From the NCBI GenBank assembly GCA_046563655.1, contig CM102283.1, forward strand, positions 4,588,001 through 4,652,000: 64,000 nt of DNA. Direction: 5' to 3'. Shown here piece by piece: positions 26,485 to 44,388 of this stretch. The DNA is from Yuukianura sp. NJ FZ-2021 (lineage: Eukaryota). The notes beneath the pieces were generated by a model that had not been told where the DNA came from, searched no databases, and was given only the letters and a program-made list of their open reading frames with translations. The position numbers were made by a program, and so were the translations under genes. Positions within the stretch are counted from its first letter, which is position 1. Each line of letters opens with the position of its first letter.

Positions 26485-26551
26485 ATAAAATTTAAAACAA
26501 AAATTTTGTGCATTTTGAATTGATTTATTCAGAAATTTTTTTAAATGTATT

Positions 26552-26722
26552 TTACAATTCAGTAACTAAAACAGTACGTTGTTTCTTGGTTGAGTCTCGT
26601 CTTGCAGTAGTTGAACAGCACATGCAGCTAATCTTGTTCTCGTCGCAAACGGAAATGGTGGGATCTTCCTTGCTTCCAAACATCTTGGTCAAAAAGTACT
26701 CACAAACTTTGAAAAAACACAT
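26552..26722 (-). CDS. Possible 56-aa Cys-rich small protein
   Basis: Hand translation MCFFKVCEYFLTKMFGSKEDPTISVCDENKISCMCCSTTARRDSTKKQRTVLVTEL*. It fills the gap after the integrase and is followed by a minus-strand AATAAA (~26524-26529). Confidence 0.4.
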   Translation of the reverse strand: MCFFKVCEYFLTKMFGSKEDPTISVCDENKISCMCCSTTARRDSTKKQRTVLVTEL

Positions 26723-26746
26723 GTTTTCTGGCCGAGTTCTGTGGAG

Positions 26747-27667
26747 TTACTGATCCAATTTCAGTAGTTGCTTGTCATAAAAACTACCCAGAATAGGGGT
26801 ACCCTCGAGATCTTCTAACTTGTAAACGTATGGTTTAGTCGCTTTAATCCTTACGATGCGATAAACTTCTTCAATATAGTTTTTCGAGTAGCCCTTTTCA
26901 AAAGTTTTTTTAATTCTGGCAACAAGCACGAGATCGTTTGGTTTGAGTTTTGGCTTTTTATAGTCTTCTGCTACTTCTGGGTACAAGTTTTGGCGTACTT
27001 CATCCTCATTTCTCTCAGTTACTTCACATGGCGCCATCTTGATGCTTCGATGATAAGCATGATTGTACAGATTCTCAAAATCGGACAATTTATCAACAAA
27101 CTTTTTTGTTTTGTAGTGTGTCAAGTAGCGCTGAATTTTCATAAATAGTGTTCGAATGAAACGTTCCACAATGACACATTTTAGTGGAGAATGTGTCCAG
27201 AAGAGTTTGATGTCTTCACGCTTCAAATAAGCTTTCATGTGTCTATTTAAAAATTCTGAACCTTCATCTACTTGTAAACAACTAGGTTTTCCACCACTTC
27301 GCTGTAAAATTTTTTCGAATGCTGCAAGAGTTACTGGCCCCGTCTTGTTTGGGATTGCTTCTATCCAGGCTTGTTTTGAAAAAGCATCAATAACCACCAA
27401 CAAGTACCTCTTTTTATTATTAGCTCCTGACATGCTTTGGATGTCTTTCAAGTCTGCACAGTACTGTTCATGCATCCCTCCAACGTAAACCCGCCGTCGT
27501 GGGAATCTATATCGAACTGGGTGGTGGAGTTGATAGCTTGGAATTTGTTTTAAAATTTTCTTGACACGGTGTAGAGATGCCCTAGTTTTTGAATCTTTTT
27601 GAAACCCAGCAGCTCCAGAGAAGCCTCCAGGCTGTGAGGTGTCCTGCCATCGATGTTTCAGATCCAT
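26747..27667 (-). CDS. int: Retroviral-like (rve) integrase, apparently intact, 306 aa
   Basis: PGGFSG, YCADL (D), LLVVIDAFSK, QVDEGSEF (D), IVERFIRTL (E), YNHAYHRSIKMAP, FEKGY, GSFY. Probable ATG at 27667. Confidence 0.95.
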   Translation of the reverse strand: MDLKHRWQDTSQPGGFSGAAGFQKDSKTRASLHRVKKILKQIPSYQLHHPVRYRFPRRRVYVGGMHEQYCADLKDIQSMSGANNKKRYLLVVIDAFSKQAWIEAIPNKTGPVTLAAFEKILQRSGGKPSCLQVDEGSEFLNRHMKAYLKREDIKLFWTHSPLKCVIVERFIRTLFMKIQRYLTHYKTKKFVDKLSDFENLYNHAYHRSIKMAPCEVTERNEDEVRQNLYPEVAEDYKKPKLKPNDLVLVARIKKTFEKGYSKNYIEEVYRIVRIKATKPYVYKLEDLEGTPILGSFYDKQLLKLDQ

Positions 27668-27673
27668 GATGAA

Positions 27674-27719
27674 AATGATATAAAAGGGCTCTGCACACTT
27701 CAATTTATATCATTCAGTT
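27674..27719. promoter_or_regulatory. Compact divergent Pol II core promoter
   Basis: Plus strand: TATAAAA 27679-85 and TCAGTT 27714-19 before the ATG at 27733. Minus strand: TATAAAT 27709-27703 and TCATT ~27678 before the integrase ATG. Confidence 0.6.
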
Positions 27720-27732
27720 TCTAACAATCAAA

Positions 27733-28068
27733 ATGGTTGGAACTAAAATCAACAAGCATCTCCTTTTTCTAAAAAACTTGAATTCTCATTCTAAAAAGAA
27801 ACGAGCTTTGCATTTACATAACGCAAGCTCAGAACAAATTGGTGCAATTTGCGAGTGTGTTAAGAATGTATACAATGGCCGCTTGGAGATCCCACCGAAA
27901 GCTATAAAACGCCTCGTTCCTCACCAGGACCACATCAGACGTCTGGTATCACGCAGAGGAAAAGCAGATCACAAGCGTCGTCTTCTTGTTCAACAAGGCG
28001 GATTCCTTCCTTTGCTACTTGGCGCTGCGATTCCAGTTCTAGGGGAACTTCTAGGCAAACTGTTTTAA
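27733..28068 (+). CDS. Basic Polinton virion core protein with adenovirus pX-like C-terminus (111 aa)
   Basis: K/R-rich; ends in QQGG|FLPLLLGAAIPVLGELL, resembling the GG-F protease site and hydrophobic tail of adenovirus pX. Confidence 0.7.
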   Translation: MVGTKINKHLLFLKNLNSHSKKKRALHLHNASSEQIGAICECVKNVYNGRLEIPPKAIKRLVPHQDHIRRLVSRRGKADHKRRLLVQQGGFLPLLLGAAIPVLGELLGKLF

Positions 28069-28070
28069 AC

Positions 28071-28728
28071 ATGCCCACAAAATTGAGGGTGATTAGTGAT
28101 GCAGACTTTGAGCGTCTAATGTCTCAATCTTCTAAACCAACTGAAGTTGGACGACTTGAAAATGAAAAAAAACCATTTGCTTAATCTTAACGATTCGGAA
28201 GAAATTCAAAACATGTTACTTCAAGACGTTTTACGACGATTGGCAGACAAGAAAAAACGTGAAAAGCCAGATGTCAAAAACATGCTAGAACCATCACTAG
28301 ATATTCCATCAGTGGATACTTCAGAAGATGTTCCAGCAAAACCACCTCCAGTAGAGAAATTTGACTTTGGTGGACGAACAAGAGTTGGAGTTCATCTTTT
28401 ACAGTTTTTTATTGACAATGGAGCGACACTAGCTTCAGGCATTGTGTCGTTTGACGGTGGATCGCTACCACTTTCAACATTTGATTCAATTCTAAAGAAA
28501 CTGTCAAATGGAAGATGCAAAATTTCAAAGGATGAACTCGAACCAATCAGAAACTTTTTAACCTCAAAAGGATTTCCATTGGCTCTTCTACCAAGAACAC
28601 ATCTTCGCCACTTTAATGAAGACGACTCTGACACTCCTAGAAAAACTCGAAAAAGCTCCCGAAGGAAACGGCCTCGATTGGATTATACCTTTCTGGAAGA
28701 ATGGATTCCTCCAGCCAATTGGGAATAA
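28071..28728 (+). pseudogene. Conserved Polinton hypothetical protein with a +1 frameshift in an A8 run
   Basis: ATG 28071 (MPTKLRVISDADFERL) joins the 193-aa frame if one A is removed at 28165-28172. Homologous to the N-terminal and middle parts of 35060-36457. Could be a homopolymer sequencing error. Confidence 0.65.
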
Positions 28729-28748
28729 ATTTGAAGACAACAAAAAAT

Positions 28749-29273
28749 TTACAATTTTATACAACACTGATTTATTATTTTGTGTTTACATTTACAATTT
28801 GAATTCAATAAATGATTTTTCAATGTAACAAATTTGCGTACTTTTTTATCATTTAAATTTCTATTGGGAGAAAAGTAGCAGTAAGTAGATAGAATACAAC
28901 AGCCATGCATCATTTTATACAAAAAGTAAATTGCATATTGTCCGCAAACATCAGAATCAATAGCTTGCAATGGTCTAGTGTTTTCCAAAATTTTACATGA
29001 AAACTTATTTACAAAATTTCTAAAGTCGTCAGGATAAAAGTCCAGTCCAAGTCCATAAGAGCAAAAGAAGATGATTGGTCCAGTCCTGCCTCCAATGTAG
29101 ATTGCCACCCAATGTTCTCCAGGATGATTTGATGGCTTGTTGTTTACAACCAAGTAGGCTGGGAAGCGAGAAATTGTTAGCTTTGCCAGCAGGTTGCATG
29201 GAATTACATTGAAATATGCTCTTGTTCCGCGAGTCATATTTGATAGAAATTGGTAAATTTGAGTAGTGTCCAT
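28749..29273 (-). CDS. Adenain-like cysteine (maturation) protease, 174 aa
   Basis: VVNN, PGEHWVAIY (His), FCSYG, LQ...VCGQYAIYFL (Gln/Cys). Its ATG overlaps the MCP stop codon (TAATG). Confidence 0.92.
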   Translation of the reverse strand: MDTTQIYQFLSNMTRGTRAYFNVIPCNLLAKLTISRFPAYLVVNNKPSNHPGEHWVAIYIGGRTGPIIFFCSYGLGLDFYPDDFRNFVNKFSCKILENTRPLQAIDSDVCGQYAIYFLYKMMHGCCILSTYCYFSPNRNLNDKKVRKFVTLKNHLLNSNCKCKHKIINQCCIKL

Positions 29274-30375
29274 TAGTGAGAATAATCCTTGAAGAACACG
29301 TTGTTTCCTTCGTCTATGTAGAGCGTCGATTGAAAGTCAGCGTGACAAATGACGTTCCAGGCTTCAGTGATCCCCTTTGCAAACTGAACAACGATTTTTA
29401 TACTCCCATGTCTTGGAGGACAGTAGCCTTGATTCATCTCTCGAAGGTTAAAAATGAAAAAAGCCTTTCCATTTGTAAACTCCTTGAGGCTAATAGCAGG
29501 TCCTTCGTTGCTAGCACTTAGACCAAGTCCGCTAAACATGCCATAGTATGCTTCGGAAACTCGAACATCTCCATCGCTGTCATATTGGTAGGCTTGATGA
29601 TAAAGCTGCTCTCCATTTGCTGTCACAGAAATTTGTCTCAACTCTGGTGGCTTAAAGTCAAATGGATTCGTAGTTAGAGTTCCGTTCATTTTATCACTTT
29701 GTACTAGACAAAGTATAATTCTGTCGGGGAGTAATCCACTAATCAAGTTTTCATTGACATTTGACACGGTCCCAAGCGGCAAACTGTATGTCTTCATCTC
29801 AATCCGTCGCATTGGATAGCATGCTGGTTGTCCATTAGCCCACATCTTCAAATGACAATTCAAAATATTCGGCAGTAGTGTGTGTTTTTTGACTAAAAGT
29901 CTGGCTTCAGTAATGTTGATTTTGTAGCGTGTATTTTGAGCGTCAGCTTGAGAGTGGAGTGCAAACTCTTCAGTTGAGCGATTGAAAGTTACTCTAATGT
30001 CAATTCCAGGAATCAAGTAGCGAGTTTGAGCAAAGATGTCTGCAAACGGTCGTCCAATCATATCCAACCCCTTGGCAGCTAATTCTTGTCTCTTTTTGTG
30101 TGAAGCGTCCGTGTCACTCAAATTCTCTTCATCTCTCAAGTAAAGAGCTGTCACAGCTTGAGTATCCTTGTAATCTCCTCCATAAGCAAGCACAGTCTCA
30201 ATGCTCGATAAGGCTCGATAAGGATAGAGCGACATTGTGGGGGTAATTTGTGTTTCATTTAGAAACACAGAACACTGCTGGAATAGGGAATGTAAAAAGT
30301 TGTTGACTGGAGCAATTCGCATGGTAGCTCTATCATCGAGTGGATCTTGATTGGCTTTTAAAATTTTACAGCGGA
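29273..30375 (-). pseudogene. Major capsid protein (double jelly-roll), 3' part of the split gene
   Basis: PVNNFLHSLF, YPYRA..IETVL.Y, DIFAQTRYLIPGIDIRV, G.LPDRIIL, NPFDF are typical Polinton MCP motifs. Joins 38592-38799 in frame once the nested insertion is removed. Confidence 0.9.
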
Positions 30376-30598
30376 CATATAGTAGATAGCAAGTGAGGAC
30401 AACCGCATACTCCGGTTAGTCGGCCGCAATATTGGGGAGGGAAAAAACTCACAATGACAAAAAATGTCGTCAACAAAAAAGTCGACAACAAAAATGTCGA
30501 CAAAAAAAGATCGAAAACAAAAATGTCGACAAAAAATGTCGATAACAAAAAAGTCGACAACAAAAAACAAGTAGTGAAATTTTTGTATAGAAAATTCG

Positions 30599-30740
30599 AA
30601 CATTGACTCTAGCCTAGTGTCTAAGTGCTTGTAACTACTTCTCTACGGCCGCTGGTTCGAATACCACACGGGTCAACCCTTGTGGTTAAGAAGTTACAAG
30701 TACTTAGATACAAGACTGGGGTCAATGTTATTATTTTTTT
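30599..30740 (+). ncRNA. Candidate Pol III-transcribed long-hairpin RNA (VA-RNA-like), copy 1
   Basis: A-box-like TAGCCTAGTGT at 30610 and B-box-like GGTTCGAATACC at 30654. The 30599-30640 arm pairs with the 30688-30729 arm (42 bp, 4 G-U pairs, 3 mismatches). T7 at 30734-30740. Confidence 0.65.
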
Positions 30741-30953
30741 ATTTATTTTTAGTTAAGGGTTGAGTTCTTGGAAAAATATCTTTTCTCAAGAAAAACGTTT
30801 TTTCTTGGAAAGTTCTCAAAATAACATTTCTTTAGAAAAAAACGTTTTTGAAAAATTTCAAAATAGCATTTCAAACGTTGTCCAAGTAGTACTTAAACAG
30901 CGAGTTTTGAGACTAGCAATCATCAGTTCGGAAACCAGTCTCAAACTATAAGC

Positions 30954-31805
30954 ATGCGAGGATTCAGGTCATACATGGAGGTTTCGGAACCGTTTATTGA
31001 CATGGAAGATGTTATCGCAGTCAAGATTTCTGGACATTCGATTCTTCTGACAGCAGAGGAACTGCCAACCGTGGTGGAAAAGCTAGTAAAAGCATACATA
31101 GCCGCAGGGGAAATGATGAAGGATTTACCACACTTTGAAACAATCATGGCAACTAACCGCAAGAATGGATTCCTAAAGTTATTTCGTCAGCAGTCACCCG
31201 CAGAGTTTCAAACACTCAAAGAAAAGCTGGAGCGACCGCTTCTTCCTATCCAATGCATCACAGGCAATGTGAATCGAGTGTTTCTCATACGTAGCGGTCG
31301 TCCACTTCCCATCGAAATCATGGACATTCCTCTTCTGGTGGAATCACTTCTAAAGTGTGGCTGCTTTCCGACCTCATATACAGAAAAGTATCTGGATGAG
31401 CTCATTCATGAGTCAAAACGTGAATACATGAGAAAGCTACGCGATAAAATTCTCAACACACGTGCCAACAGAATTAAAGAAACAATTGGCAAGGCTGCCG
31501 GTTTAAAGACGAACAAGAAAGTTCATCCATACAAAAAACCAAACGTGTTTCACCGATTTGCCTGCTATTTATCGCCAGAGTCCTTCATTTTAAATCCAGC
31601 CTACTCGAAGCATGTTCTAGACGTTACCAAACATCAACAAATTCAAATTAACAACCAAAGACGCACTCCAAACCATGACTTTAACGAGCACTTTAGACTG
31701 GTCCATCTTAACATGTATCGTCAATCGTCGTACTCTGATGATACAGTTCTCAACATTATTTTTTATGGTGTTAAGCAAATTTCAGCTTTTGACATTTTTT
31801 GTTAA
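30954..31805 (+). CDS. Hypothetical protein, 283 aa
   Basis: Intact ORF preceded by TACTTAAA (30890) and TCAGTT (30923), followed by AATAAA (~31842). An internal motif occurs twice (LLTAEELPTVVEKL / IEIMDIPLLVESL) and resembles IEMKEIPFLVSKL in 40162-40584. Confidence 0.75.
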   Translation: MRGFRSYMEVSEPFIDMEDVIAVKISGHSILLTAEELPTVVEKLVKAYIAAGEMMKDLPHFETIMATNRKNGFLKLFRQQSPAEFQTLKEKLERPLLPIQCITGNVNRVFLIRSGRPLPIEIMDIPLLVESLLKCGCFPTSYTEKYLDELIHESKREYMRKLRDKILNTRANRIKETIGKAAGLKTNKKVHPYKKPNVFHRFACYLSPESFILNPAYSKHVLDVTKHQQIQINNQRRTPNHDFNEHFRLVHLNMYRQSSYSDDTVLNIIFYGVKQISAFDIFC

Positions 31806-32464
31806 ATTGTATAATCTACTTTAGTAGCAGTTTTTGTATTTGAATAAATTCAAACTTGTACATTCTCAAATTTTTTGTTGTTTGGGTTATTTTATTTTGA
31901 GAATGTCGTTTGAGAGTCGTTGAACTTTTAGTCCTTTCTATTTTTAGACAAAGTCGAAAAAACGTTTATTTTTCCTAGAATTAGGAAAAGACTCGTTTCT
32001 GTTGAAAAACGTTTCGAGTTGTTCGTTTAATCCTTTTTCCAAGAAATTTAAGGTAGTAGAGTGTTCGAACGTTGTTTTACCTCATTTATTTTTAGCTCAG
32101 CCGCGGGGGCTAGTCGGGCGCAATATTGGGGAGGGGAAAACCCCTCAAAAAATACATAATGACAAAATCTCAACATCTAAAATGGCAAAATGTCAAAAAC
32201 GTCAACAACAAAAATGTCAACAACAAAAAGGCCGACAACAAAAAAGTCAAAACACAAGTATTGGAATTTTTCATAAAAAAATTCGAAAAGTTCTTTTCAA
32301 AACAACTTGTCACAAGAAAAAACGTTTTTTGAAAATATTTTAAAATAGCATTCAACCATTGCTTCGATGGCTACTTAAACAGTGAACTCTGAATCTAGAA
32401 ATCGTCAGTTCTAAACTTAGTAGTGGAAATTACAACATTCCTACTCCATAGCCATTCTCAAAAG

Positions 32465-33169
32465 ATGGAAGATGTAAAACATGAAATTGCTCTCCGAGTA
32501 AGAGGCATTCCATGGGAAAGACGTCCAGAAAAGTGTCCTGGATTTTATATAACTCCAATTTGTTTGCAAAACTCGTCAGCGTTTAAAACTCACGAAGAGT
32601 ACAAAGCGCTTCCAGTTACTCGGGTTTGCGATCACAGTCGCTGCAACTATAGTGGTGAATACGACTACATGATTGAAAAACTGTTTGGAGATGGAGTATT
32701 TAAATCAGCTGATTTGCAAGAAATTATGGACGAAATTTCGCGACTCCGAAAATTTAAAAAGTATTATTGCAAATACATGCAATGTTCTGGATTCATTTTA
32801 CGAAAGGGGAAGAAAGCAACAGCCGACCCACATTCCCTAGTTCCTGGTTATGACTTTTCCAGAAGCAAAGAAGCTCCTTATACCTTACCATGCAACGGCT
32901 GGAACTGTGATACAACGACGTTCGCAAAGTACATTATCAATGCGGCTTTAGCCCGTGGATATTTGGCTCCAACGTATTCTCTTCGAAATAATCCACTCAT
33001 CATCCTGGAAAAAGTGGGGTGGACGGCAATGCTGAATGCAACTCCTCATGAAACACATAAAGAATTTATTCAAAATTCAGAAAACTGGCTTGCAAAACAA
33101 TGGAAGTTTCTGTGGAGCCCTGACGTTCTCTACACTGCGCGTCAACAACGAATATCTCATTTTGCTTGA
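32465..33169 (+). CDS. Hypothetical Cys/aromatic-rich protein, 234 aa (arm copy 1)
   Basis: Intact ORF from ATG 32465, preceded by TACTTAAA (32372) and TCAGTT (32405). Confidence 0.75.
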   Translation: MEDVKHEIALRVRGIPWERRPEKCPGFYITPICLQNSSAFKTHEEYKALPVTRVCDHSRCNYSGEYDYMIEKLFGDGVFKSADLQEIMDEISRLRKFKKYYCKYMQCSGFILRKGKKATADPHSLVPGYDFSRSKEAPYTLPCNGWNCDTTTFAKYIINAALARGYLAPTYSLRNNPLIILEKVGWTAMLNATPHETHKEFIQNSENWLAKQWKFLWSPDVLYTARQQRISHFA

Positions 33170-33460
33170 AGTTTATTTCGAGTATGTCGTTTCCGAGTCG
33201 ACGACCGTTTAACCTTTTTTATTTTTAAGATTCCGAGAATGTCGTTTTGACTCGTTTAACCTTGTATTTTTTCAAAATAGTTTTAAAAGATAGGAATGTA
33301 AGCCGTTTCTTGGAAGAAGGGTCGTTTCTGTTGAAAAACGTATCCCCAAATATTTTAAAAGATGGCTACAGAGTACAAAGTATTCAAGCTGAAACGCTTG
33401 AACACCTCATGGCTGGATTTATCCAACCCAGCCCCGGGGAAGCCTTTGGGTCGTGTGAGC

Positions 33461-33522
33461 CAGCCCTTGGACGCCAGCCCTTGGACGCCAGCCCTTGGAC
33501 GCCAGCCCTTGGACGCCAGCCC
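33461..33522 (+). repeat. 14-bp minisatellite TTGGACGCCAGCCC x4
   Basis: Read directly; the mirror arm has 6 copies at ~37095-37185. Confidence 0.95.
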
Positions 33523-33544
33523 TCAATTCGCATGAATTTTTAAC

Positions 33545-34030
33545 GTAATATAACAACTTCACTGCATAATACAATGGTCTCTCTACATAATACAATGGCC
33601 TATCTGTATAATACAATGGCCTCTCTGCATAATACAATGGCCTCTCTGCATACTACCATGGCCCAGTTGTATAATACCACAACGTCATTACATAATGCCG
33701 AGTTTATTCTGTACAACAGAGCGAGTTTGCGAGAGTAAAGTCTAGACTTTGTCAATGTCACGGGAACTTACTCCGTGAGTACACCTTGCAGAGTTCTTCC
33801 TCGGGATTATTTCCCGCAGGTAACCTTCCTTCGAGAGTCAGATCATCGTCAATACCATGGTCACGTTGTATAATACCATGGCCACATTGTATAATACCAT
33901 GGTCACGTTGTATAATACCATGGTCACGTTGTATAATGCCATGGTCACGTTGTATAATACAATAACCTCACTGCATAATACAACATTTTTTGTCAATTTT
34001 ACATCCAATCACCACCACCACCACCACCAC
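33545..34030 (+). repeat. Two blocks of a 21-bp minisatellite (TATAATACCATGGTCACGTTG-like) followed by (CAC)n
   Basis: Blocks at ~33545-33700 and ~33850-33985, (CAC)n at ~34010-34030; mirrored at ~36590-37075. Confidence 0.9.
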
Positions 34031-34058
34031 AACCCCAACGTGCCCACCCATGCAAAAG

Positions 34059-34094
34059 TATAAATAGCGACGTTGACTTGCTCATCTCTCAGTT
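34059..34094 (+). promoter_or_regulatory. TATA box plus initiator at the inner end of the left arm
   Basis: TATAAATA 34059-66 and TCAGTT 34089-94 (30-bp spacing) upstream of the ATPase. Confidence 0.7.
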
Positions 34095-34146
34095 TCGTTT
34101 CAGACGTTGAGCTGTTAAGACGTGAAGATTCTGTGGACTATACATC

Positions 34147-34962
34147 ATGGATACCAGTACAGCGTGTGATATTTGCTGCAGACAATTCTCACGAAGGGAC
34201 GCATTGAAACGGCACAAGTTAACTTGTCATAGTAGCGTCGCAGTATCGAAAATGCTTCAGGTATGCATGAATCAGCGGGAAAAATCTACTATGTTTCGAC
34301 ATGTATACTCTGGGAAAAAGTTTGACCCGCATTTGGTTGCACCGTTTACTATGTGTATCAGTGGAATGACTCAGAGCGGCAAAAGCACCCTTGTGAAGCA
34401 AATACTTCTACGACGAATCGAAATTATCGAGACTAATATTGACAAGCCCTTGGAACGTATCATGTATTGCTACACTGAGTACCAGCCTACGCTGTTTGGA
34501 GAATTGAAGACCAAGATTCCAACTATACAATTTCATCGTGGACTTCCTGAAAAATGGCATGACGGAACCGACAAGCCGTCAGTCGTCGTCCTTGACGATT
34601 TGATGCATGAAGCAGGCAAAAACAGAGAAGTTGGAGCTGCGTTCACAAGGACTTCGCATCACCGCAACGTATCACTCATCATTCTTGTGCAAAACTTTTT
34701 TCACAGGAATATGAAAGAACTCACGTCAAACTGTCATTACATTGCTCTAATGAAGAATCCGCGAGACTCTCAATTTGTAGCTTGTCTTGGACGTCAAATG
34801 AATGGAGGAAAGAAGAATACAACCATGGAAGAAGCCTACAAGGAATGCATGTTAAAGCAATATGGATATCTATTCATCGATTTAACTCAACGACAAAATG
34901 ATTTGTTTCGCATTAGAGATAATATATTTCCTGAAAATTGTCGAATCTATGTTAATGAATGA
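34147..34962 (+). CDS. A32/FtsK-like packaging ATPase with N-terminal C2H2 zinc finger, 271 aa, intact
   Basis: CDICCRQFSRRDALKRHKLTCH; Walker A GMTQSGKST; Walker B VVVLDD; SHHRNVSLIILVQN; YGYLFIDL; AATAAA at ~34965. Confidence 0.93.
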   Translation: MDTSTACDICCRQFSRRDALKRHKLTCHSSVAVSKMLQVCMNQREKSTMFRHVYSGKKFDPHLVAPFTMCISGMTQSGKSTLVKQILLRRIEIIETNIDKPLERIMYCYTEYQPTLFGELKTKIPTIQFHRGLPEKWHDGTDKPSVVVLDDLMHEAGKNREVGAAFTRTSHHRNVSLIILVQNFFHRNMKELTSNCHYIALMKNPRDSQFVACLGRQMNGGKKNTTMEEAYKECMLKQYGYLFIDLTQRQNDLFRIRDNIFPENCRIYVNE

Positions 34963-35059
34963 ATGAATAAACACATTACACGATAAAAGTTCTATTTTCA
35001 AGTTTTTTATTCTGAAAATTCGGAATCTAACGAATTTACAGTCATAAAGGTGTATAATT

Positions 35060-36457
35060 CTACGAAATTACGCTAGTGAAAAACTCTCCAAGTATTGGTA
35101 ATGCGGCAGCGAGAAGAGCTGGCAGGAACCCGCCGTGCTGTATAAGTAGTTTTTTCTTGTCTTCAATCGATCCTTTAGCTTCTGCAACACGTTTAATCTT
35201 ATATCGATGCGGTCTCAAGATATTTTTGACGGTGGCCTCAATAGGAATGTTGCCCTGGATTACGTCCTGAACACATTTGTGTAACCCAAGAATTTGACCA
35301 CGAGACGCTGTGGAGAGCAGTGTCTCGCGTATAATAGGGGAGTGTTGGTTCATCTGGTGGAGAAATTGATAATGTCGTATGGGACCTGGTGATGGTTTAG
35401 CTCCTCCAGTTTGTCTATACTCTTCTTCCCCTTCTTCATCCCTTTCGTCTTCCTCGTTTTCCTCCTCTTCTTCTACTTCTTCTTCTACTTCTTCTTCCCA
35501 TTCTTCATCCCCCTCGTCTTCCTCATCATCTTCTTCTTCTTCATTTTCTACATCACTTTCCACGTGCGGGCGATTTCTAGAAAGCTTTTTAGGTTCATCT
35601 CGACCGAGCAAGCCTCGGTGGCTGATCGGAAGCAGATATTTTGGAATGCCTGTCTGAATCATAAAGTCTACGATGACAGGAATCATTTGTCTTGTCAACT
35701 TATATCTTCCATCCGCAAGTTTTCGTATTCCCTCCTCGAACTCGCTCCTGGATATGTTGGCATCACCCAGACTAACGCTATTGTTCGCAAAGGTTGCACC
35801 ATTTGCTACAAAAAATTGTGCTAGCTGTTTTCCTACAGCTGAAAACTGGTCCATAGTAAACGGTGGAGTTGTCGGTGCTGCTGTCGGCGTTTCATCTTTC
35901 GCTATTTGCGATTCTTTTTTAAATCTCTTGGAAAATGGCATCTCGAGCGCGTCATTCGGCTTTACCACAGTATTTGACCAACCATTCGTTGGATTTTCTG
36001 ACCAGGTCGTAATTCGGTCATATCTGTCTTCGGTTTTTCTGGCTGACTTTTCCGGTACACCATCCCATCCGCTAAAGTGGCTTGTAGCCATATCATTCAA
36101 CCGCCTATCGTTTACAACGTTCACATTGACGTAGCCTTCCCTTTGCTTCCGTTGATTTTCCAAGTTCTGGCGTAATTCCGTTTGCATCATATGATTCTGA
36201 AGTTCGATTGGAATGTTGTTCCCAGAATCTCGCGAATTACGCTCATGAAGCTCCATTGGTCCACGGCTCTGAGACATGTTCATTGTATGTTGCTGTAAGT
36301 ATTGTACGGGTGTAGTATCAAGCAAAAAACCATCATGGATTTGCTTTTCTCCAAAATAACTTTTGCAAGGGCTGTTTTGCTGAGACTCATATGTCTCAAG
36401 CCGATCCAGTAGACTGTTGTAGTCGTCTTGGTGAACAAGAATGTATTTTTGCGCCAT
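35060..36457 (-). CDS. 465-aa fusion of two Polinton core-gene homologs joined by an acidic linker
   Basis: The middle (QFFVANGAT..KLADGRYK..LLP) matches 28071-28728; the C-terminus (QHGGFLPALL) matches 27733-28068. An E/D-rich tract and QTGG lie between them. Confidence 0.85.
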   Translation of the reverse strand: MAQKYILVHQDDYNSLLDRLETYESQQNSPCKSYFGEKQIHDGFLLDTTPVQYLQQHTMNMSQSRGPMELHERNSRDSGNNIPIELQNHMMQTELRQNLENQRKQREGYVNVNVVNDRRLNDMATSHFSGWDGVPEKSARKTEDRYDRITTWSENPTNGWSNTVVKPNDALEMPFSKRFKKESQIAKDETPTAAPTTPPFTMDQFSAVGKQLAQFFVANGATFANNSVSLGDANISRSEFEEGIRKLADGRYKLTRQMIPVIVDFMIQTGIPKYLLPISHRGLLGRDEPKKLSRNRPHVESDVENEEEEDDEEDEGDEEWEEEVEEEVEEEEENEEDERDEEGEEEYRQTGGAKPSPGPIRHYQFLHQMNQHSPIIRETLLSTASRGQILGLHKCVQDVIQGNIPIEATVKNILRPHRYKIKRVAEAKGSIEDKKKLLIQHGGFLPALLAAALPILGEFFTSVIS

Positions 36458-36523
36458 GACTGTTAGCCTAACCGCTCCAGATGGTAAAATCTTCACGTCT
36501 TAACAGCTCAACGTCTGAAACGA

Positions 36524-36559
36524 AACTGAGAGATGAGCAAGTCAACGTCGCTATTTATA
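36524..36559 (-). promoter_or_regulatory. Mirror TATA plus initiator facing the 465-aa gene
   Basis: Reverse complement of 34059-34094. Confidence 0.7.
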
Positions 36560-37476
36560 CTTTTGCATGGGTGGGCACGTTGGGGTTGTAGTGGTGGTGG
36601 TGGTGGTGATTGGATGTAAAATTGACAAAAAATGTTGTATTATGCAGTGAGGTTATTGTATTATACAACGTGACCATGGCATTATACAACGTGACCATGG
36701 TATTATACAACGTGGCCATGGTATTATACAATGTGACCATGGTATTATACAACGTGACCATGGTATTGACGATGATCTGACTCTCGAAGGAAGGTTACCT
36801 GCGGGAAATAATCCCGAGGAAGAACTCTGCAAGGTGTACTCACGGAGTAAGTTCCCGTGACATTGACAAAGTCTAGACTTTACTCTCGCAAACTCGCTAT
36901 GTTGTACAGAATAAACTCGGCATTATGTAATGACGTTGTGGTATTATACAACTGGGCCATGGTAGTATGCAGAGAGGCCATTGTATTATGCAGAGAGGCC
37001 ATTGTATTATACAGAGAGGCCATTGTATTATGTAGAGAGACCATTGTATTATGCAGTGAAGTTGTTATATTACGTTAAAAATTCATGCGAATTGAGGGCT
37101 GGCGTCCAAGGGCTGGCGTCCAAGGGCTGGCGTCCAAGGGCTGGCGTCCAAGGGCTGGCGTCCAAGGGCTGGCGTCCAAGGGCTGGCTCACACGACCCAA
37201 AGGCTTCCCCGGGGCTGGGCTGGATAAATCCAGCCATGAGGTGTTCAAGCGTTTCAGCTTGAATACTTTGTACTCTGTAGCCATCTTTTAAAATATTTGG
37301 GGATACGTTTTTCAACAGAAACGACCCTTCTTCCAAGAAACGGCTTACATTCCTATCTTTTAAAACTATTTTGAAAAAATACAAGGTTACACGAGTCAAA
37401 ACGACATTCTCGGAATCTTAAAAATAAAAAAGGTTAAACGGTCGTCGACTCGGAAACGACATACTCGAAATAAACT

Positions 37477-38181
37477 TCAAGCAAAATGAGATATTCGTTG
37501 TTGACGCGCAGTGTAGAGAACGTCAGGGCTCCACAGAAACTTCCATTGTTTTGCAAGCCAGTTTTCTGAATTTTGAATAAATTCTTTATGTGTTTCATGA
37601 GGAGTTGCATTCAGCATTGCCGTCCACCCCACTTTTTCCAGGATGATGAGTGGATTATTTCGAAGAGAATACGTTGGAGCCAAATATCCACGGGCTAAAG
37701 CCGCAATGATAATGTACTTTGCGAACGTCGTTGTATCACAGTTCCAGCCGTTGCATGGTAAGGTATAAGGAGCTTCTTTGCTTCTGGAAAAGTCATAACC
37801 AGGAACTAGGGAATGTGGGTCGGCTGTTGCTTTCTTCCCCTTTCGTAAAATGAATCCAGAACATTGCATGTATTTGCAATAATACTTTTTAAATTTTCGG
37901 AGTCGCGAAATTTCGTCCATAATTTCTTGCAAATCAGCTGATTTAAATACTCCATCTCCAAACAGTTTTTCAATCATGTAGTCGTATTCACCACTATAGT
38001 TGCAGCGACTGTGATCGCAAACCCGAGTAACTGGAAGCGCTTTGTACTCTTCGTGAGTTTTAAACGCTGACGAGTTTTGCAAACAAATTGGAGTTATATA
38101 AAATCCAGGACACTTTTCTGGACGTCTTTCCCATGGAATGCCTCTTACTCGGAGAGCAATTTCATGTTTTACATCTTCCAT
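37477..38181 (-). CDS. Hypothetical protein, 234 aa (arm copy 2)
   Basis: Identical to 32465-33169 except one residue (YIINAA vs YIIIAA). Confidence 0.75.
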   Translation of the reverse strand: MEDVKHEIALRVRGIPWERRPEKCPGFYITPICLQNSSAFKTHEEYKALPVTRVCDHSRCNYSGEYDYMIEKLFGDGVFKSADLQEIMDEISRLRKFKKYYCKYMQCSGFILRKGKKATADPHSLVPGYDFSRSKEAPYTLPCNGWNCDTTTFAKYIIIAALARGYLAPTYSLRNNPLIILEKVGWTAMLNATPHETHKEFIQNSENWLAKQWKFLWSPDVLYTARQQRISHFA

Positions 38182-38591
38182 CTTTTGAGAATGGCTATGG
38201 AGTAGGAATGTTGTAATTTCCACTACTAAGTTTAGAACTGACGATTTCTAGATTCAGAGTTCACTGTTTAAGTAGCCATCGAAGCAATGGTTGAATGCTA
38301 TTTTAAAATATTTTCAAAAAACGTTTTTTCTTGTGACAAGTTGTTTTGAAAAGAACTTTTCGAATTTTTTTATGAAAAATTCCAATACTTGTGTTTTGAC
38401 TTTTTTGTTGTCGGCCTTTTTGTTGTTGACATTTTTGTTGTTGACGTTTTTGACATTTTGCCATTTTAGATGTTGAGATTTTGTCATTATGTATTTTTTG
38501 AGGGGTTTTCCCCTCCCCAATATTGCGCCCGACTAGCCCCCGCGGCTGAGCTAAAAATAAATGAGGTAAAACAACGTTCGAACACTCTACT

Positions 38592-38799
38592 CATATAACA
38601 AAGTTTCACTAAGGTCCACATAGTGAACATCGTTTCCTTTGACTTGGAAAGAAATTGGACCTCCATTTTCACTTAACGTTGACAAGGGGTGATATTCAAA
38701 CATTCCACTACTTTGCAGGCTAACGTCCATTTCTGGTTCACTGAAAATATCAGTTTCACTTCTAACTACTTGTGGGTGGGTAGCGTGTTTGGAACTCAT
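38592..38799 (-). pseudogene. Major capsid protein, 5' part of the split gene
   Basis: SETDIFSEP...EYHPLS...PISFQV.G...YVDLSETLLY is a typical Polinton MCP N-terminus; it is cut at the CATAT TSD. Confidence 0.9.
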
Positions 38800-39218
38800 T
38801 GTTTGTCAAATATATTTCTTGGTTTCTTTTTCTTAGTGACAATAGTTCGATTGAGCTTCCTCTTCATTGAATGTCCATATCCAGACTGAGTGGAAAGAAT
38901 ACCGTCCGTGACGCCTTTAAGTACTCCCTTCAAGGCGGTCGAGCCGTGTTCAGAAATAGCTTCCTTGACAGATTTTTTTCCACCAATCACATCCGAGGCT
39001 ATACCAGCGACGGCAGTTTTAGCATGAGGCATCAAAAATTTGGCCACGTATGGTAAAACTTTTCGAAAAATTGAGCCAAAAATTCCGCCAATTCCGTGAC
39101 CACGCTGACGAAACTGATTGGCTTTGAAGAAAACGGCTCCGTCTGATCCCACAGCCCCTCCTCTCTGGGGATTGTAAATTCTGAAAAAATCTTCCTCGCT
39201 CAAGTTGCATTTGTACAT
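38796..39218 (-). CDS. Small basic/amphipathic virion core protein with QxGG/QxGxG sites, 140 aa
   Basis: QRGG, QRGHGIGGIFGSIFRKVLP, QSGYG and a K-rich tail; lies between the penton and MCP genes as is usual in Polintons. Confidence 0.75.
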   Translation of the reverse strand: MYKCNLSEEDFFRIYNPQRGGAVGSDGAVFFKANQFRQRGHGIGGIFGSIFRKVLPYVAKFLMPHAKTAVAGIASDVIGGKKSVKEAISEHGSTALKGVLKGVTDGILSTQSGYGHSMKRKLNRTIVTKKKKPRNIFDKQ

Positions 39219-39284
39219 GTTGCCAGTTTGACGTCTGAAGAGTTAATGATTGCAAATTTTTTGAGTAAGCTGGTTTTATACACG

Positions 39285-39989
39285 TCAGTATCGCTTCCGT
39301 CGAAAGTGGAGAGTTGCCAAAAAAGTTCCGACTGTAAATGCTGGTGGATCACCAGATTCCGTCATGATGTACATCCATATATGATCAATATCGTCAAATA
39401 CAACATCTATGTATTGGAGATGTTGAAACGATCGGGTCACAACCTTTTTGTGGTCACCAGTATTTGAAATTTTTCTCAACAGTGGGGCAAGGTCACCTCC
39501 AACACGCTGATTTTCAATTATACTGCAGTAGATGAAAAGTTGTGTATGTCCACTCGGTTCAAAAACTTCATAGTTGAAACTCTGTTTTCCTTCATCGTAT
39601 CAAAGAATTTTAGTAGCCTCTTCGTTAAACCTTACAAAGGATTTAGCAGGTTTCTTGACAAATCTGGCTCTCGAATTTCTAATTTCAATTTGTACGATAT
39701 TATCTGATACACGTTTTGCAAGATCGTCTGCAGTCCGAATCAATGCAGCGTCTTCTGAGGAAATGCTGAGCAAATCAAACATTGACCCGCTACCAACTTG
39801 TCGAAGCCACCCTTCCTTGTGCAGCATATACTCGTGATGGACATATGTACACTCTACTAACGCCACCTCGTATTTTACACCCTCTAATCGAATTGTCTCA
39901 GCAAAATGATTTCTAAAATTTGTAATTGTGTTTTCTGGATAATGATTTGACGAAGAATCACTCTGGAGAGTCACGTAAAAGTCTCCCAT
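39285..39989 (-). pseudogene. Minor capsid protein (penton) with one in-frame stop
   Basis: FYVTLQSDSS..YPENT..F, YEVALVE; TGA at 39600-02 (KIL*Y), after which the same frame continues LFIYCSIIENQRVGGDLAPLLR...LHFRR. Confidence 0.9.
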
Positions 39990-40161
39990 GGCTGCTAGTT
40001 TTAGACTAAACACTTAGAATGAAGAACGATCGCTTAAATACCATTTTGGTACGAGTCAAAAAATTTATTTGTTACAATTCTTAAAACTAACAAAATTTGT
40101 AAAATTTTTTAAATATTTCTAAAGTATAAATAGCTTTCAAAATGTCTTTCTAAAAGGGTTT

Positions 40162-40584
40162 TTAAAATTTTGTGTCTTCGATCCAGTATTTTTGTGTATC
40201 AACTTCGTCGTAGTCTTCTTCGGGGATACTATTCAGACGAGGTTTCAGTGATGGAGATTTTCGGTTCCAGACAGCATTGCTCATCGCTTCAGCTACAATG
40301 TCCATTTTCGGCTTCTTTGCTTGTTGACCCTTATCCTCGTAACGCTCCTTGCAATCCAGCAGCAATAGTTCAAAGTTTGGCAGCTCACTCATTGGATGGC
40401 CCGTAGACAGAAAGAAGAGAATCAGCTTCGAAACCAGAAAAGGAATTTCCTTCATCTCAATTGTAGTGTAGTAGCGATCCTTCTTGATAAAGACTTTGTA
40501 TTCTCCATCTTCCAGCTTCCACCAACATTTGACACGATCTTCAAGAGTCTTGCGCACGAATCCTGCAGCGTATGCTTCAACCAT
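40162..40584 (-). CDS. Hypothetical protein, ~140 aa
   Basis: Intact ORF; probable ATG 40584 downstream of ATAAAAA...TCAGTC; acidic DYDEVD tail. Confidence 0.6.
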   Translation of the reverse strand: MVEAYAAGFVRKTLEDRVKCWWKLEDGEYKVFIKKDRYYTTIEMKEIPFLVSKLILFFLSTGHPMSELPNFELLLLDCKERYEDKGQQAKKPKMDIVAEAMSNAVWNRKSPSLKPRLNSIPEEDYDEVDTQKYWIEDTKF

Positions 40585-40902
40585 TGTGGTAATTGAGAAG
40601 TAGTTTTTGAGGAGAAGTTCCGACTGAAGCTGTGATGAGACTGATGGTTTGACGAGCATTTGAGTAGCCTTTTTATTTCAAGTTTTCAGGTAGAAAACTT
40701 AACCTTTTTTCCAATTATAGAAAAAGGAAACGTTCTAACGACTAAAATTTCTTGGGAAAAAAGGATTAAACGAACAACTCAAAAACGATTTTCAACAGAA
40801 ACGAGCCTTTTCCAAGAAAAGGGTTAAATTACTATTTTAGGATTTTTCAAAAAACGTTTTTCTAGAGAATTTGTTTTGAACTTTTTTAATCCAAAAAATT
40901 TG

Positions 40903-41044
40903 AAAATAGCAATAACATTGACCCCAGTCTTGTATCTATGTACTTGTAACTTCTTACCCACAAACGTTGACCCATGTGGTATTCGAACCAGCGACCGCAG
41001 AGAAGTAGTTACAAGCACTTAGACACTAGGCTAGAGTCAATGTT
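40903..41044 (-). ncRNA. Candidate Pol III-transcribed long-hairpin RNA (VA-RNA-like), copy 2
   Basis: The 131-nt hairpin (41044 to 40914) differs from copy 1 at about 7 positions; the A- and B-box-like motifs are identical. T4 (40906-03) and T6 (40898-93) lie downstream. Confidence 0.65.
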
Positions 41045-41165
41045 CGAGATTTCTATGAAAAAATTAAAATACTTGTTTTGTGGGGTTGACCTATTTGCCG
41101 TTGACATTTTTGATGTTGATATTTTTGATGTTGATATTATTGTCAATGTTTTGTCGTTTTTTAGA

Positions 41166-41260
41166 TTTTGAGGGTTTTCCCCTCCCCAATATTGTGCCCG
41201 ACTAGCCCCCGCGGCTGAGCTAAAAATAAATGAGGTACAATTCCTACCGACCCCTCTACT
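41166..41260 (-). repeat. Right terminal inverted repeat of the Polinton
   Basis: Reverse complement of 22061-22155. Confidence 0.93.
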
Positions 41261-41312: not shown

Positions 41313-41510
41313 TGTTTGTTTGTTTGTTTGTTTATTACACTGCAAGTACCCTGCATGCAGGCAATTACACTTGAGTTTGAGTTAAGTTAAGAAAGGATGT
41401 GTACTTTAGTTACTTGGTAGGTCAATGAAAACAATTATTGAAAAATGTGAGACAATTTAGAAAGAATTACATTAGTAAAATTAAGATTAAAAGTTGAAAT
41501 TAAAATTATT

Positions 41511-44346
41511 TCAGACAAAAGAATTACTTAGGGTGGAGTCAAGACAGGACATATTTGCTAGGTTTGAACTTTTTGTCGTCGTCAAGATTTGTAAATTCAG
41601 AAAATGCTTGTGAAGGGCATTCCGGAAGTGTTCAAATGATTTGTCAATTCCAAGATCCTGAAGTTCAGTCGGTAAGGCGCAGATTATTTTGGCAATTGTA
41701 GGAATGAAGGCCTTTGGATGGAAACGCTTGTCATTCATGGAGACATAGGATCCGCTTCGTGTTGATTTTCTTTGTTTTAGACAGTTTTCAATTTGTAAGA
41801 TGGTCTCTTGGAAGTATGGGATTTGATGAGATTTCATTTTTGCAAATACTTGAACCAATTCGAAAAGGTTGTGATGAGTAGGTAGTAGCCATTGGAGTTC
41901 AAAGTTTAGCTTCTCCATGATACTGTCACGTTTTCTGAGTTGATAGATGAATCTTATACTTTTCCGAAAAATCTTGTTGATGCACTTAAATTGGGAGATT
42001 TTGCAGTTTGCCCAAATGATCAGCATGTATCGCAAAATTGGAGAGATGTACGAAGTAACCATTAGCTTCCTGTGTTTTTCGGAGAGAAGATTCTGAATTG
42101 GATAGAGTGACCACAGAATTGAATTGCATTTCTTGATTATGGAGATGTGATGTTCACACCATGTTAACGTATTGTCAATTGTAAGACCGAGTGATTTGAA
42201 TGATGTTACACTTGTCACACTAGTGTTTCCCACTTGAAGTTGGATTAAGCCAATTTTGTCAATTATTTTCTTCTTCCCAATCAAAAGCACTTTGGTTTTT
42301 TCTATGTTCAATGACATATGATTGCTTTTCATCCAGTTATTAATTTTTCCAATTAATATTTCTGCTGTTTGAATTAAGGAATTCAAATGGTCTGGATCAT
42401 CTGCAAGCACAATGTTGTTGTAGTCTGCAAATAGAATTGCAGACGCTTCAGTGATGATTTCCAAAAGGTCATTGATCATAATGGCAAACAGTAGAGGACC
42501 AAGTACTGAGCCTTGTGGAACTGACAAAATAGTTTGACGGGAACTTGAACTTGAATTGTTAATTTCTACATGCTGTGACCTACTGCTCAGATAGGATTCA
42601 AACCATTTAGTTGAAATGTTGTACCACTGCATTTTATCAATAAGGAAACCTTTGTTGACCGTTTCAAAAGCCTCTTTGAGATCCAAGGAAATCACCAGAC
42701 AGATTTTGCCATGATTAAGGTGGGAGTATATTGTGTCCATTAGTGCCAGTTGAGCCAATGTAGTTGAGTGGTGCTGTCGAAATCCAAATTGGGCCTTATT
42801 CAGTAGAGAGTGGCTGTTCAAAAACTCAGTTAATTGATAGTGAGCAACTTTTTCTAAGAGTTTACCAAGCACTGGTTGGAGGGAGATTGGTCTAGTGTCG
42901 GATGGGTGTTTTGGAACTTTCACTTTTGGCAATGGAACAACTTTTGAATGTTGAAACAATGATGGAAACACTTTTGTTTCAAAGCTTTTGTTTACAAGAT
43001 TTAGCAGTTGCGTTTTTATGTTAGGCGCACTTTCACTGTGGGAAATAATCCAGTTTGAAATGCCGAATTGATCGCTACTTCTGGATTGTTTGTTTTTCAC
43101 ATTCTTCCAAATCTTGTTAAATTGATGAACTGTCACTGGCTTGAGATCAAAAGTTTCAGGGGGAGTGGCAATAGAAGTTGGTTTGATTGGGCAAAGTGTC
43201 GATACTGTTTGAGGTGTGGTGATTGAAGTAAAATATTCATTGATTTCATCTGCACTGAAAGGGAGATCATTGAATTTTGATTTTGTTTTTGACCAGACTT
43301 TTGAAATTGCCTTAAAAGGGCCAAGTTTTTCAATGTCAAGGTTTAAGGTGTCTTTTCTATCACGTAATACAGCTGACTTCACTTTTTTTTGATTTGTTGT
43401 AATTCGAGCTTGAGTGCTTGATCTCTATTTTTGACACTTCCAAGCTGGTCCCTTAATAAAATCAGATTTTTGGTTTCTAGTGAAAGTGTAACTGGCACAA
43501 CTTTCGGTACAAATGAAACAGTTTTGGTTTTTGCTGTGTCATCAAAGTTGGTTTTGATTTTCTGCATAAATTCGTGGAACTGAGAATTTAAATCCATATC
43601 ACTGGTTTGGAATGTTGTGAACACATTCTTGAGGCCAAATTCCTTAAAGTCAAAATTTTTGTAGTCTCGATATGTAAACTGCACTCGTGGAATCTTTGGC
43701 TTCGTCAAGTTGAGTGTTAGAAGGGTCATCGCATGGTCGGAGAGATGGGGATCGATGACACTATGATCCACTACTGTTGTTTTTGAGTTAGTGAATATTA
43801 GGTCGAGTATTGACTCTCCCCTGGTTGGTTGCTCCACTAGTTGATGAAATATGGATGTTGTTTTTTTAACAAGATGACGACATTTAGGAGGAATGTACTT
43901 CTGGTTTAAGTTGAAGTCTCCAAAGACGAAGCTGTTTTTCCTGCTGAGACTCAATTCATTAAAGAGTTTGTTTAATGAATCTAAATCACTGTTGATTATT
44001 TCAGAAGAGAATTTGGAATACGGTAAACACTGGAGGCGAGAAAGCATTTGTTGTGGTTGAGTTGAATTGATAGGGTAATCACTTCAAAGTTACAGTTAAG
44101 AGGCAAGTTGACAACTTTCACTTTTGACTTCAGGGTAGATCTAACAAGGATGCCTACACCTCCTTTTGCTTGCCATTCTCTGTCTAGGTGAAAGAATTCG
44201 AATCCTTCAATTGATCTTGGTGGGTTAGTGATCTTCAGATGCGTTTCAGAGATACACAAGACGTCGAGATTGTAAGAGTCGATCAGTATTTTTATTAATT
44301 CACATTTAGAGTTGAATCCACAAACATTAAGGCCAGCAATTTTCAA
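41511..44346 (-). pseudogene. LINE ORF2: AP endonuclease plus reverse transcriptase, frameshifted
   Basis: GLNV, ISETHL, GDFN, ILDLIF and SDH (APE); RPISL, QFGFR and PQGSVLGPLLF (RT). The catalytic FADD reads FADY. Frameshifts near 44010-44040 and 43385 (T9 run). Confidence 0.92.
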
Positions 44347-44388
44347 TTTTTTACAGGAAGTTGATGGAGCCGCGTCAAGATGATCTAG

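Follow-up and report, generated by a model that had tools for sequence, protein, structure and literature searches.

The window analysed here (64,000 nt of contig CM102283.1 from Yuukianura sp. NJ FZ-2021, positions 4,588,001 to 4,652,000) contains, within a larger Polinton that we call the outer element, a 6.5-kb unit in which two inverted copies of one genome end, comprising terminus, subterminal repeats, a gene for a 234-amino acid (aa) protein and a putative promoter, enclose a unique segment that codes for a packaging ATPase and for a fusion protein with two regions, Y and X. This is the architecture by which copy-back defective viral genomes are defined (PMC13506859). We lean towards the view that the unit is a non-autonomous, copy-back-like defective genome of a Polinton or adintovirus-like element, which would need helpers to supply polymerase, integrase and capsid. 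The unit and its parts are as follows (positions are those of the window; ORF, open reading frame).

32055-38591, strand not applicable: 6537-nt unit (arm, core, inverted arm), from the terminus and arm alignment
32055-34130, + strand: left arm, 2076 nt, from the inverted-repeat alignment; in order, terminus, GC block, 15-nt repeats (32164-32254), 234-aa ORF, 14-nt array (33459-33523), 21-nt arrays (33546-33696 and 33851-33981), then putative promoter and leader
32465-33169, + strand: cysteine-rich arm gene, 234 aa; copy at 37477-38181, - strand; both intact, with one residue different
34058-34130, + strand: putative promoter and shared leader before the ATPase gene; identical copy at 36488-36560, - strand, before the 465-aa gene
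34131-36487: unique core, 2357 nt, with two convergent intact ORFs
34147-34962, + strand: packaging ATPase, 271 aa, with an N-terminal C2H2 finger and an A32/FtsK-HerA-type ATPase
35060-36457, - strand: Y-X gene, 465 aa, with an N-terminal region, Y (residues ~190-290), an acidic linker (~300-350) and X (~355-465)
36488-38591, - strand: right arm, 2104 nt; repeats the left arm in inverse orientation, its 14-nt array (37095-37187) being longer by two units

Architecture and gene content of the unit

The arms account for 64% of the unit. Their alignment, of 2104 columns, contained 8 mismatches and a single 28-column gap, which corresponds to two units of the 14-nt tandem repeat; the near-identical 2.1-kb arms described in an earlier interpretation of this DNA (the sequence-only reading) are thus borne out, as 8 substitutions and one 28-nt repeat indel. 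The outermost 140 nt of both arms were identical (140/140) and started with AGTAGA, so the unit ends AGTAGA...TCTACT, and the aligned terminal 140 nt showed 82-88% identity to both ends of the outer element. The 13 nt that follow AGTAGAG distinguish the unit terminus from those of the outer element. A GC-rich subterminal block is common to the unit termini, to both outer-element ends and to a third terminus at position 30381, in agreement with the Polinton-type ends and family GC box that had been noticed before. The mismatches between arms were distributed unevenly: the outer 885 nt were free of them, a single one (Asn/Ile) fell within the 234-aa gene, and the other seven were located among the repeats and promoter of the inner 900 nt, a pattern that could mean end-directed homogenisation or a faster change of the repeats.

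An FtsK/HerA (A32-like) packaging ATPase and terminal inverted repeats (TIRs) of the family type place the unit among Polintons. The genes that characterise an autonomous Polinton, that is, polB, an rve integrase, a jelly-roll capsid and an adenain-like protease, were not found in it. When compared by tblastx with the remainder of the outer element, the unit showed no credible similarity to the polymerase, integrase, protease or the 129-, 140- and 349-aa morphogenesis genes of that element, and a Pfam scan of the three distinct ORFs of the unit gave no rve match; the outer 129-, 140- and 349-aa and protease genes do have homologues in related metagenome loci. The claim that the unit contains neither replication nor capsid genes therefore holds; a very divergent capsid protein in the 234-aa product, whose AlphaFold2 model had a mean predicted local distance difference test score (pLDDT) of 33, is conceivable. 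The sequence-only reading was also right in that the core contains an intact ATPase gene and an intact fused gene, and missed the 234-aa gene and the putative promoter with leader present in each arm.

The inner 73 nt of each arm comprise a TATAAATA box, followed 32 nt further on by TCAGT, a motif resembling an initiator, and then by a leader of ~40 nt, and the distance from the arm boundary to the start codon, inside this shared leader, is 16 nt for the ATPase and 30 nt for Y-X. Both promoter motifs occurred in only these two places in the window, and two matches were found in 0 of 100 shuffles. The identity of this TATA/initiator promoter and leader in the two arms suggests one promoter used twice, once per core gene; its promoter function is inferred from sequence. 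Features of this promoter, like the LINE-like element described at the end, point to an animal host. The 97-nt spacer between the stop codons of the core genes (34963-35059) contains an AATAAA for each gene, that of the ATPase directly after its stop. Tandem 15-nt A-rich repeats lie 110-200 nt inside each terminus; by analogy only, they recall the adenovirus packaging repeats, which occupy a comparable subterminal position (PMC5033970).

The proteins of the unit

The ATPase matched Pfam Pox_A32 with an E-value of 2.4e-6 (27.7 bits, against a curated cut-off of 22.8) and had 74 homologues at E<=1e-5, the best with 73% identity. All 16 columns that were invariant in an alignment of 25 sequences, including Walker A and B, are kept (16/16), and 126 of 170 residues are identical to the ATPase of the outer element. 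Between the 465-aa protein and its outer-element homologues, identity was 41% over 98 aa in the X part and 32% over 101 aa in the Y part. The earlier conclusion that this divergence speaks against a recent deletion product stands with respect to the outer element, but does not extend to an ancestor in another Polinton subfamily.

An exhaustive HMMER search with the 465-aa protein gave 463 matches at E<=1e-3. Among the 150 of these that were listed, most were stand-alone proteins of ~110 aa aligning to residues ~355-465, that is, to the X domain, and three (P0079, P0089 and P0174) matched the Y domain only; none of the 13 proteins inspected among these 150, including all 8 of at least 250 aa, was a Y-X fusion. 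The X domain ends in a GGFLP-hydrophobic tail like that of adenovirus pX, with GGFLP invariant in the alignment. Eight of 20 members of the X family matched Pfam Adeno_PX (PF05829) at E<=1, the best at 0.004, below Pfam significance, and the window's own X part did not match it. The designation of the 465-aa product as a core protein, made in the sequence-only reading, is consequently plausible, although weakly supported; that the gene is intact and fused was confirmed. Fusions of this type are already known, since the adintovirus proteins PLA2X and GasderminX also join an N-terminal domain to a C-terminal pX-like tail (PMC8502044). Y-X differs from them in that Y has no clear fold match and in that Y and X are separate genes, X before Y, in the outer element and in metagenome locus L012; the particular Y-X combination looks unusual.

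No Pfam family matched the Y domain at E<=0.1, either in the 465-aa protein or in the outer Y protein, in a scan where PLA2 and gasdermin were not specifically tested. AlphaFold2 modelled the Y domain (35561-36040, - strand) with confidence over residues 61-146 of the segment (~85 residues, pLDDT ~90), predicting a compact fold of a helix, three strands and three helices. Foldseek found no match to this model in PDB at E<=0.001 and none in BFVD; in the wide VIA search the highest Z was 4.5, which is within noise, and the matches included two chains of adenovirus capsid entries (Z 4.0). When the Y and X alignments were used as profiles against PDB, no match had an E below 0.06, a word-indexed search with the 465-aa protein gave nothing at E<=1e-3, residues 1-300 had no usable match in ESM Atlas, and an exact look-up of ten window proteins in a collection of 15 billion found none of them (0/10). 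The X domain is a modular tail in several proteins (P0080, P0084, P0098, P0122, P0140 and P0152), following, as judged by eye, C2H2 fingers or a FLYWCH-like N-terminus and a long acidic linker; one protein contains two tandem X domains.

In the 80 metagenome loci described below, the arm gene had a single relative, an ORF of 350 aa in L011, which aligned over 192 aa with 25% identity (E ~1e-10) and is situated upstream of the ATPase gene and on the same strand. The same contig contains, at 227-808, an ORF with BIR-like and RING-like motifs, recognised by eye only, that is IAP-like. A word-indexed search with the 234-aa protein returned 57 candidates, none of them significant, and its AlphaFold2 model was unusable. 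An identity as archaeal Nre (ESM Atlas, 0.91) was of low recognition and was treated as chance, and a helix motif apparently shared by eye among the 283-aa protein encoded to the left of the unit (see below), a 165-aa protein and small ORFs of L011 received no support from BLASTP at E<=0.01.

Integration as part of a composite

The 5-nt flanks of the unit are unequal, AAGGT on the left and CATAT on the right, so the unit lacks a target-site duplication (TSD) of its own, a point that the sequence-only reading had missed. Position 30381 is the start of a third terminus of the family type, with CATAT immediately before it and the same pentamer again after position 38591. The features of this larger insert, in which M-left designates the segment to the left of the unit, are the following.

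30376-30380: left TSD copy, CATAT, of the composite, from the sequence and from empty-site contigs of public run X4
30381-38591: composite insert, 8211 nt (M-left plus the 6.5-kb unit), between the outer 349-aa and 140-aa genes
30381-32054, + strand: M-left, the 1674-nt left end of a different Polinton subfamily, cut off at the start of the unit; its features are an AGTAGA terminus of its own, the GC block, A-rich repeats of 15 nt (30460-30566) and an ORF of 283 aa (30954-31805)
38592-38596: right TSD copy, CATAT, from the sequence

Two contigs of run X4 that match the window from 38592 onward extend 30 letters further left, and 29 of these 30 letters are those of positions 30346-30375. These contigs thus join 30375 to 38592 and represent the uninterrupted site in an outer-element paralogue with ~10% divergence. 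Together with CATAT on both sides, this empty site indicates that the integrated entity is the composite 30381-38591, with TSD CATAT. The earlier description of the unit as a non-autonomous member of the Polinton family without polymerase, integrase or recognisable capsid is retained.

M-left and the unit terminus were 77% identical over the aligned part. Contigs from runs X1, X2 and X4 matching M-left continued to 32050-32052 and then carried other sequence, indicating that there are other copies of the M subfamily without the unit at that place. The left terminus of the unit, at 32055, is complete to the first base, which suggests that the unit was once discrete and became part of an M-type element by insertion or joining; the completeness of both termini to the last base is best explained if these were once free or integrase-processed ends. 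The composite could have arisen in either of two ways, by insertion or end-joining of the unit to an M-type element, or by the pairing of the M-left terminus with the right terminus of the unit. It integrated, with a 5-bp duplication, into an older and already defective Polinton, and would have used these two termini as its ends. The presence of ends from two subfamilies suggests that mismatched ends are acceptable to the integrase, a property relevant to the capture and movement of cargo by Polintons.

Three other interpretations of the insert were dropped. Two successive insertions of M-left and the unit at one site would need an insertion exactly at the junction, without a TSD; a right arm recombinant with an M-type end does not agree with the 0 mismatches in the outer 885 nt of the arms; and the outer 129-aa and 349-aa ORFs are not a single capsid gene split by the insert, because relatives have the 129-aa, 140-aa, 349-aa and protease genes as consecutive separate genes.

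Related sequences in public runs

In five public runs from two studies, 20-59% of the sampled words of the stretch were present; none of the public runs listed as containing the stretch was an RNA run. We aligned to positions 31400-39200 the contigs of four runs, X1, X2, X4 and X5. Contigs covering the core at 98-99% identity were found in the four runs, which belong to two studies and carry two organism labels, run X4 differing in both study and label from the best-matching runs. Single contigs bridged the ATPase/Y-X junction in all four runs (4/4). Contigs passing from the core into the right arm extended 200 nt into it in X4 and 64 nt in X5, and stopped 30 nt in for X1 and X2; one X4 contig starts at 34130, the arm boundary. 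The recovery of these contigs from independent runs indicates that the structure cannot be put down to an error in a single assembly.

At 22 of the 25 core positions listed, the four runs read only a letter other than that of the window. At the remaining three (34449, 35012 and 36430), at least one run also or only read the window letter, X1 reading both at 34449. Since the runs have these letters in common, the copy in the window is a variant and the family exists beyond this locus, and the unit is likely to be multi-copy, as judged from these sequences. Arm cover was partly absent in X5 and low in X1, but contig cover and depth cannot rank parts or give copy number, and arm-to-core depth ratios were not interpreted.

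Gene neighbourhoods in relatives and sequence variation in the core

A metagenome scan yielded 80 loci with a related ATPase. In 54 of them an X gene lies directly downstream on the same strand, in 3 it lies elsewhere, and in 23 it was undetected, 11 of the latter having less than 400 nt available downstream. P0002, a predicted metagenome protein of 471 aa, consists of an ATPase 72% identical to that of the unit with an in-frame run-on into a complete Y protein; it could be a different fusion or a missed stop, and in it ATPase and Y adjoin directly. X/Y thus habitually lies next to the ATPase, and the convergent arrangement with a fused Y-X gene seems, from the sequences compared, peculiar to the unit. 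In relatives such as L020, L022, L031 and others, polB, ATPase, X, integrase, the 129-like, 140-like and 349-like genes and protease are all on one strand. The position of the arm-gene homologue upstream of the ATPase in L011, and the order ATPase then Y in P0002, show partial collinearity with the presumed parental end.

Selection on the core genes, for which an estimate of dN/dS had been suggested, was assessed by comparing the window with the majority contigs; 8 changes in the ATPase and 15 in the 465-aa gene were classified, corresponding to the best-supported variants, with 195 others outside this set. Among these, the ATPase had 4 synonymous and 4 non-synonymous changes (ratio ~0.26; neutrality would give ~1 to 4), which hints at constraint, and the 465-aa gene had 4 synonymous and 11 non-synonymous changes (ratio ~0.73, near neutral); none of the changes listed creates a stop. 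In these small samples, the selection signal is weak. The comparison of the inner and outer ATPases gave a dN of 0.18 and a dN/dS of 0.06 with saturated synonymous sites; because it spans the whole history of both lineages, it reflects constraint at the level of the family and not of this unit.

Origin of the unit

Copy-back formation would have acted on a parent end that read terminus, 234-aa gene, ATPase, Y-X, with each terminus serving as a protein-primed replication origin and as an end recognised by the integrase. Replication, integration and packaging would then occur only with polymerase, integrase and capsid supplied in trans by autonomous relatives, and the ATPase and Y-X genes would have been kept mainly as neighbours of the duplicated parental end, not as a selected packaging device. 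Possible, but in our judgement doubtful, is an internal deletion, in which an autonomous parent with gene-bearing TIRs of 2.1 kb had the ATPase and Y-X as the first genes inside opposite TIRs and lost by a single deletion everything between them. Arm boundaries 16 and 30 nt before the start codons, in the shared leader, are what long TIRs bearing promoters would give, gene-bearing TIRs of ~2 kb are reported for butterfly polintons (10.1101/2025.02.07.637071), and gene order varies in this group. This scheme, however, puts ATPase and X/Y at opposite ends, though they are neighbours in 54 of the 80 loci and in P0002, and an AATAAA for each gene within a 97-nt spacer is unexpected of a random deletion junction; among the longest contigs listed for the four runs none ended within 34963-35059, a weak point because contigs drop rare variants. 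Copy-back is slightly favoured over the internal deletion of a long-TIR parent, given the neighbourhood of ATPase and X/Y in relatives and the retention of both poly(A) signals in the spacer. Several observations weigh against a copy-back origin with incidental retention of the core. No parent element was found that would distinguish copy-back from internal deletion, and among the contigs aligned none showed the flanks of another copy of the unit or an independent 6.5-kb copy with its own TSD. The 12 closest ATPase loci (54-65% identity) had neither X nor Y detected; six of them span 1.2-4.4 kb downstream of the ATPase and the other six 2-771 nt. The convergent orientation of Y-X, against the tandem order in P0002, requires at least one inversion or rearrangement. 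The difference between the arms (0.39%) is smaller than that between the core and the majority contigs (~1%), which implies gene conversion between the arms or an older split of the subfamily. Finally, all four genes, two in the core and one in each arm, are intact, and the hint of constraint in the ATPase would be unexpected if retention were purely incidental.

Intact genes and the hint of constraint in the ATPase, with the conservation of every invariant residue of that protein, are also what would be expected of a true satellite, the interpretation originally put forward for this DNA and one that we regard as unlikely: a maintained parasite of autonomous Polintons, whose own ATPase and pX-like protein would steer helper capsids to the 6.5-kb genome. 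It would agree with the bridging of the ATPase/Y-X junction in all four runs, where contigs show the mini and not the full-length arrangement for this gene subfamily, with the placement of both core genes behind duplicated putative promoters, and, by analogy, with A-rich 15-nt repeats just inside the termini, as are the adenovirus packaging repeats (PMC5033970). Yet the changes classified are only 8 and 15, and those of the 465-aa gene are near neutral; the low dN/dS between inner and outer ATPases belongs to the whole history of both lineages; no independent insertion was seen; and joint retention of ATPase and X/Y needs no selection, because they adjoin in relatives. A bias of encapsidation exerted by the ATPase and core protein of the unit, proposed from the presence of these genes, is conceivable but did not gain support. 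Still more improbable, in our view, is a one-off rearrangement at this locus or in one ancestral composite, the 6.5-kb unit never having moved alone, in spite of the lack of a TSD of its own and of the fact that the only documented integration is that of the 8.2-kb composite. Not a base is missing from the internal terminus (32055), which equals the right one and which a duplication in place would not be expected to recreate, the unit abuts M-left exactly where other M-type copies diverge, and core contigs come from two studies and two organism labels. Long-read assembly is known to fail at long inverted repeats that are nearly identical, and the best-matching DNA runs may share the sample with the assembly, so that a fold-back artefact was considered as well; it is very improbable, since a unique core of 2357 nt with two intact genes separates the arms, these differ by 8 substitutions and a change in repeat number, one contig of the independent run X4 passes from the core 200 nt into the right arm and another begins at 34130, and the outer ends of the composite are backed by a TSD and an empty site.

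Comparison with known systems

Polintons/Mavericks, including adintoviruses (PMC8502044, PMC4028283), share with the unit AG...CT termini, long TIRs, an A32/FtsK-HerA ATPase and a protein with a pX-like tail, and produce 5-bp target duplications, seen here at the outer element and at the composite. Unlike them, the unit has no protein-primed polymerase, integrase, protease or capsid, and measures 6.5 kb as compared to ~15-20 kb. Mobile polinton variants without polB and with gene-bearing TIRs of ~2 kb have been described in Lepidoptera (10.1101/2025.02.07.637071). They resemble the unit in lacking polB and yet behaving as insertions, and in the size and gene content of the TIRs, but keep most of the virion module, contain LINE (long interspersed nuclear element) or gypsy cargo and have hexon and adenain as TIR genes, whereas in the unit almost everything is gone and the TIR gene codes for an uncharacterised 234-aa protein. 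Literature searches on Polintons/Mavericks, exclusive of supplements, turned up no comparable mini-element and no satellite of a Polinton.

Copy-back genomes (PMC13506859) also have one end inverted around a unique segment, depend on a helper, as would the unit, and have at both ends origins and, by analogy, packaging repeats, as the unit may have. They are transient lytic products, in contrast to the unit, which is chromosomal, lies in a TSD-bounded composite and has intact genes. If the unit is only a defective by-product, it would be a copy-back-type defective genome fixed in a chromosome, undescribed as far as we could find. Comparable DNAs occur in incomplete adenovirus particles, and the "symmetric recombinant" of Ad12 bears the left end at both ends; non-autonomous Polinton entries exist in Repbase.

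Satellites that use helper capsids, namely phage P4, phage-inducible chromosomal islands (PICIs) and virophages, are independent lineages for which capsid redirection has been demonstrated. The unit is like them in being small, in having no capsid genes, in that it would need a helper and in having genes for the packaging step, and unlike them in that these are ordinary Polinton genes, as the ATPase illustrates by its 73% identity to that of a neighbouring element. Animal Polintons and adintoviruses are thought to be viruses, but there is little documentation of their particles or life cycle. A packaging ATPase and a core protein are useless to a pure cut-or-copy transposon, and their retention, if selected, would argue for an ongoing particle-based cycle. 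With the low probability that we assign to it, the unit might be the first recognised satellite of animal Polintons, a minimal replicon selected because its motor and core protein load helper capsids. Its components would then be two ends for origin or packaging, a single promoter employed for two genes, the packaging ATPase and a protein of the DNA core, and it would be an indirect, genetic indication that the virion cycle of these elements is still completed in the host. The unit may also give a minimal map of cis-acting sequences, made up of a terminus of ~140 nt, 15-nt repeats in subterminal position and a single promoter-leader segment.

The outer Polinton and its surroundings

22061-41260: outer (host) Polinton, 19,200 nt with the composite counted in, with TSD TACAG, in a monomer of a 210-bp satellite

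The pentamer TACAG flanks both ends of the outer Polinton and a neighbouring satellite monomer reads through a single TACAG, indicating that this element was inserted with a 5-bp duplication. It encodes an rve integrase and a DNA_pol_B_2 that is truncated, covering profile positions 7-276 of 468; the polymerase frame enters the middle of an ATPase at ~25966-25985, with the Walker A part missing, as a result of an internal deletion. The truncated polymerase running into the ATPase indicates that the outer Polinton is itself defective and non-autonomous. Its integrase and whole morphogenesis block (26747-30322 and 38796-40659) are inverted with respect to relatives, and there is an extra Y gene after X. 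Its left and right ends match for only ~96 nt, and the left subterminal region (22502-22733) contains a 115-bp unit repeated twice.

All mobile elements in the window lie within one island of 23.4 kb (22061-45479), outside of which the window is filled by the 210-bp satellite array, with 105 copies and 97% matches on the left (1-22060) and 88 copies and 92% on the right (45480-64000). A LINE-like retrotransposon (41313-45479, - strand), with RVT_1 (E 9e-20) and an endonuclease domain (E 6e-5), is situated 52 nt to the right of the outer Polinton, in the same satellite monomer; it has (TTTG)n at 41313 and TGATAT at both junctions.

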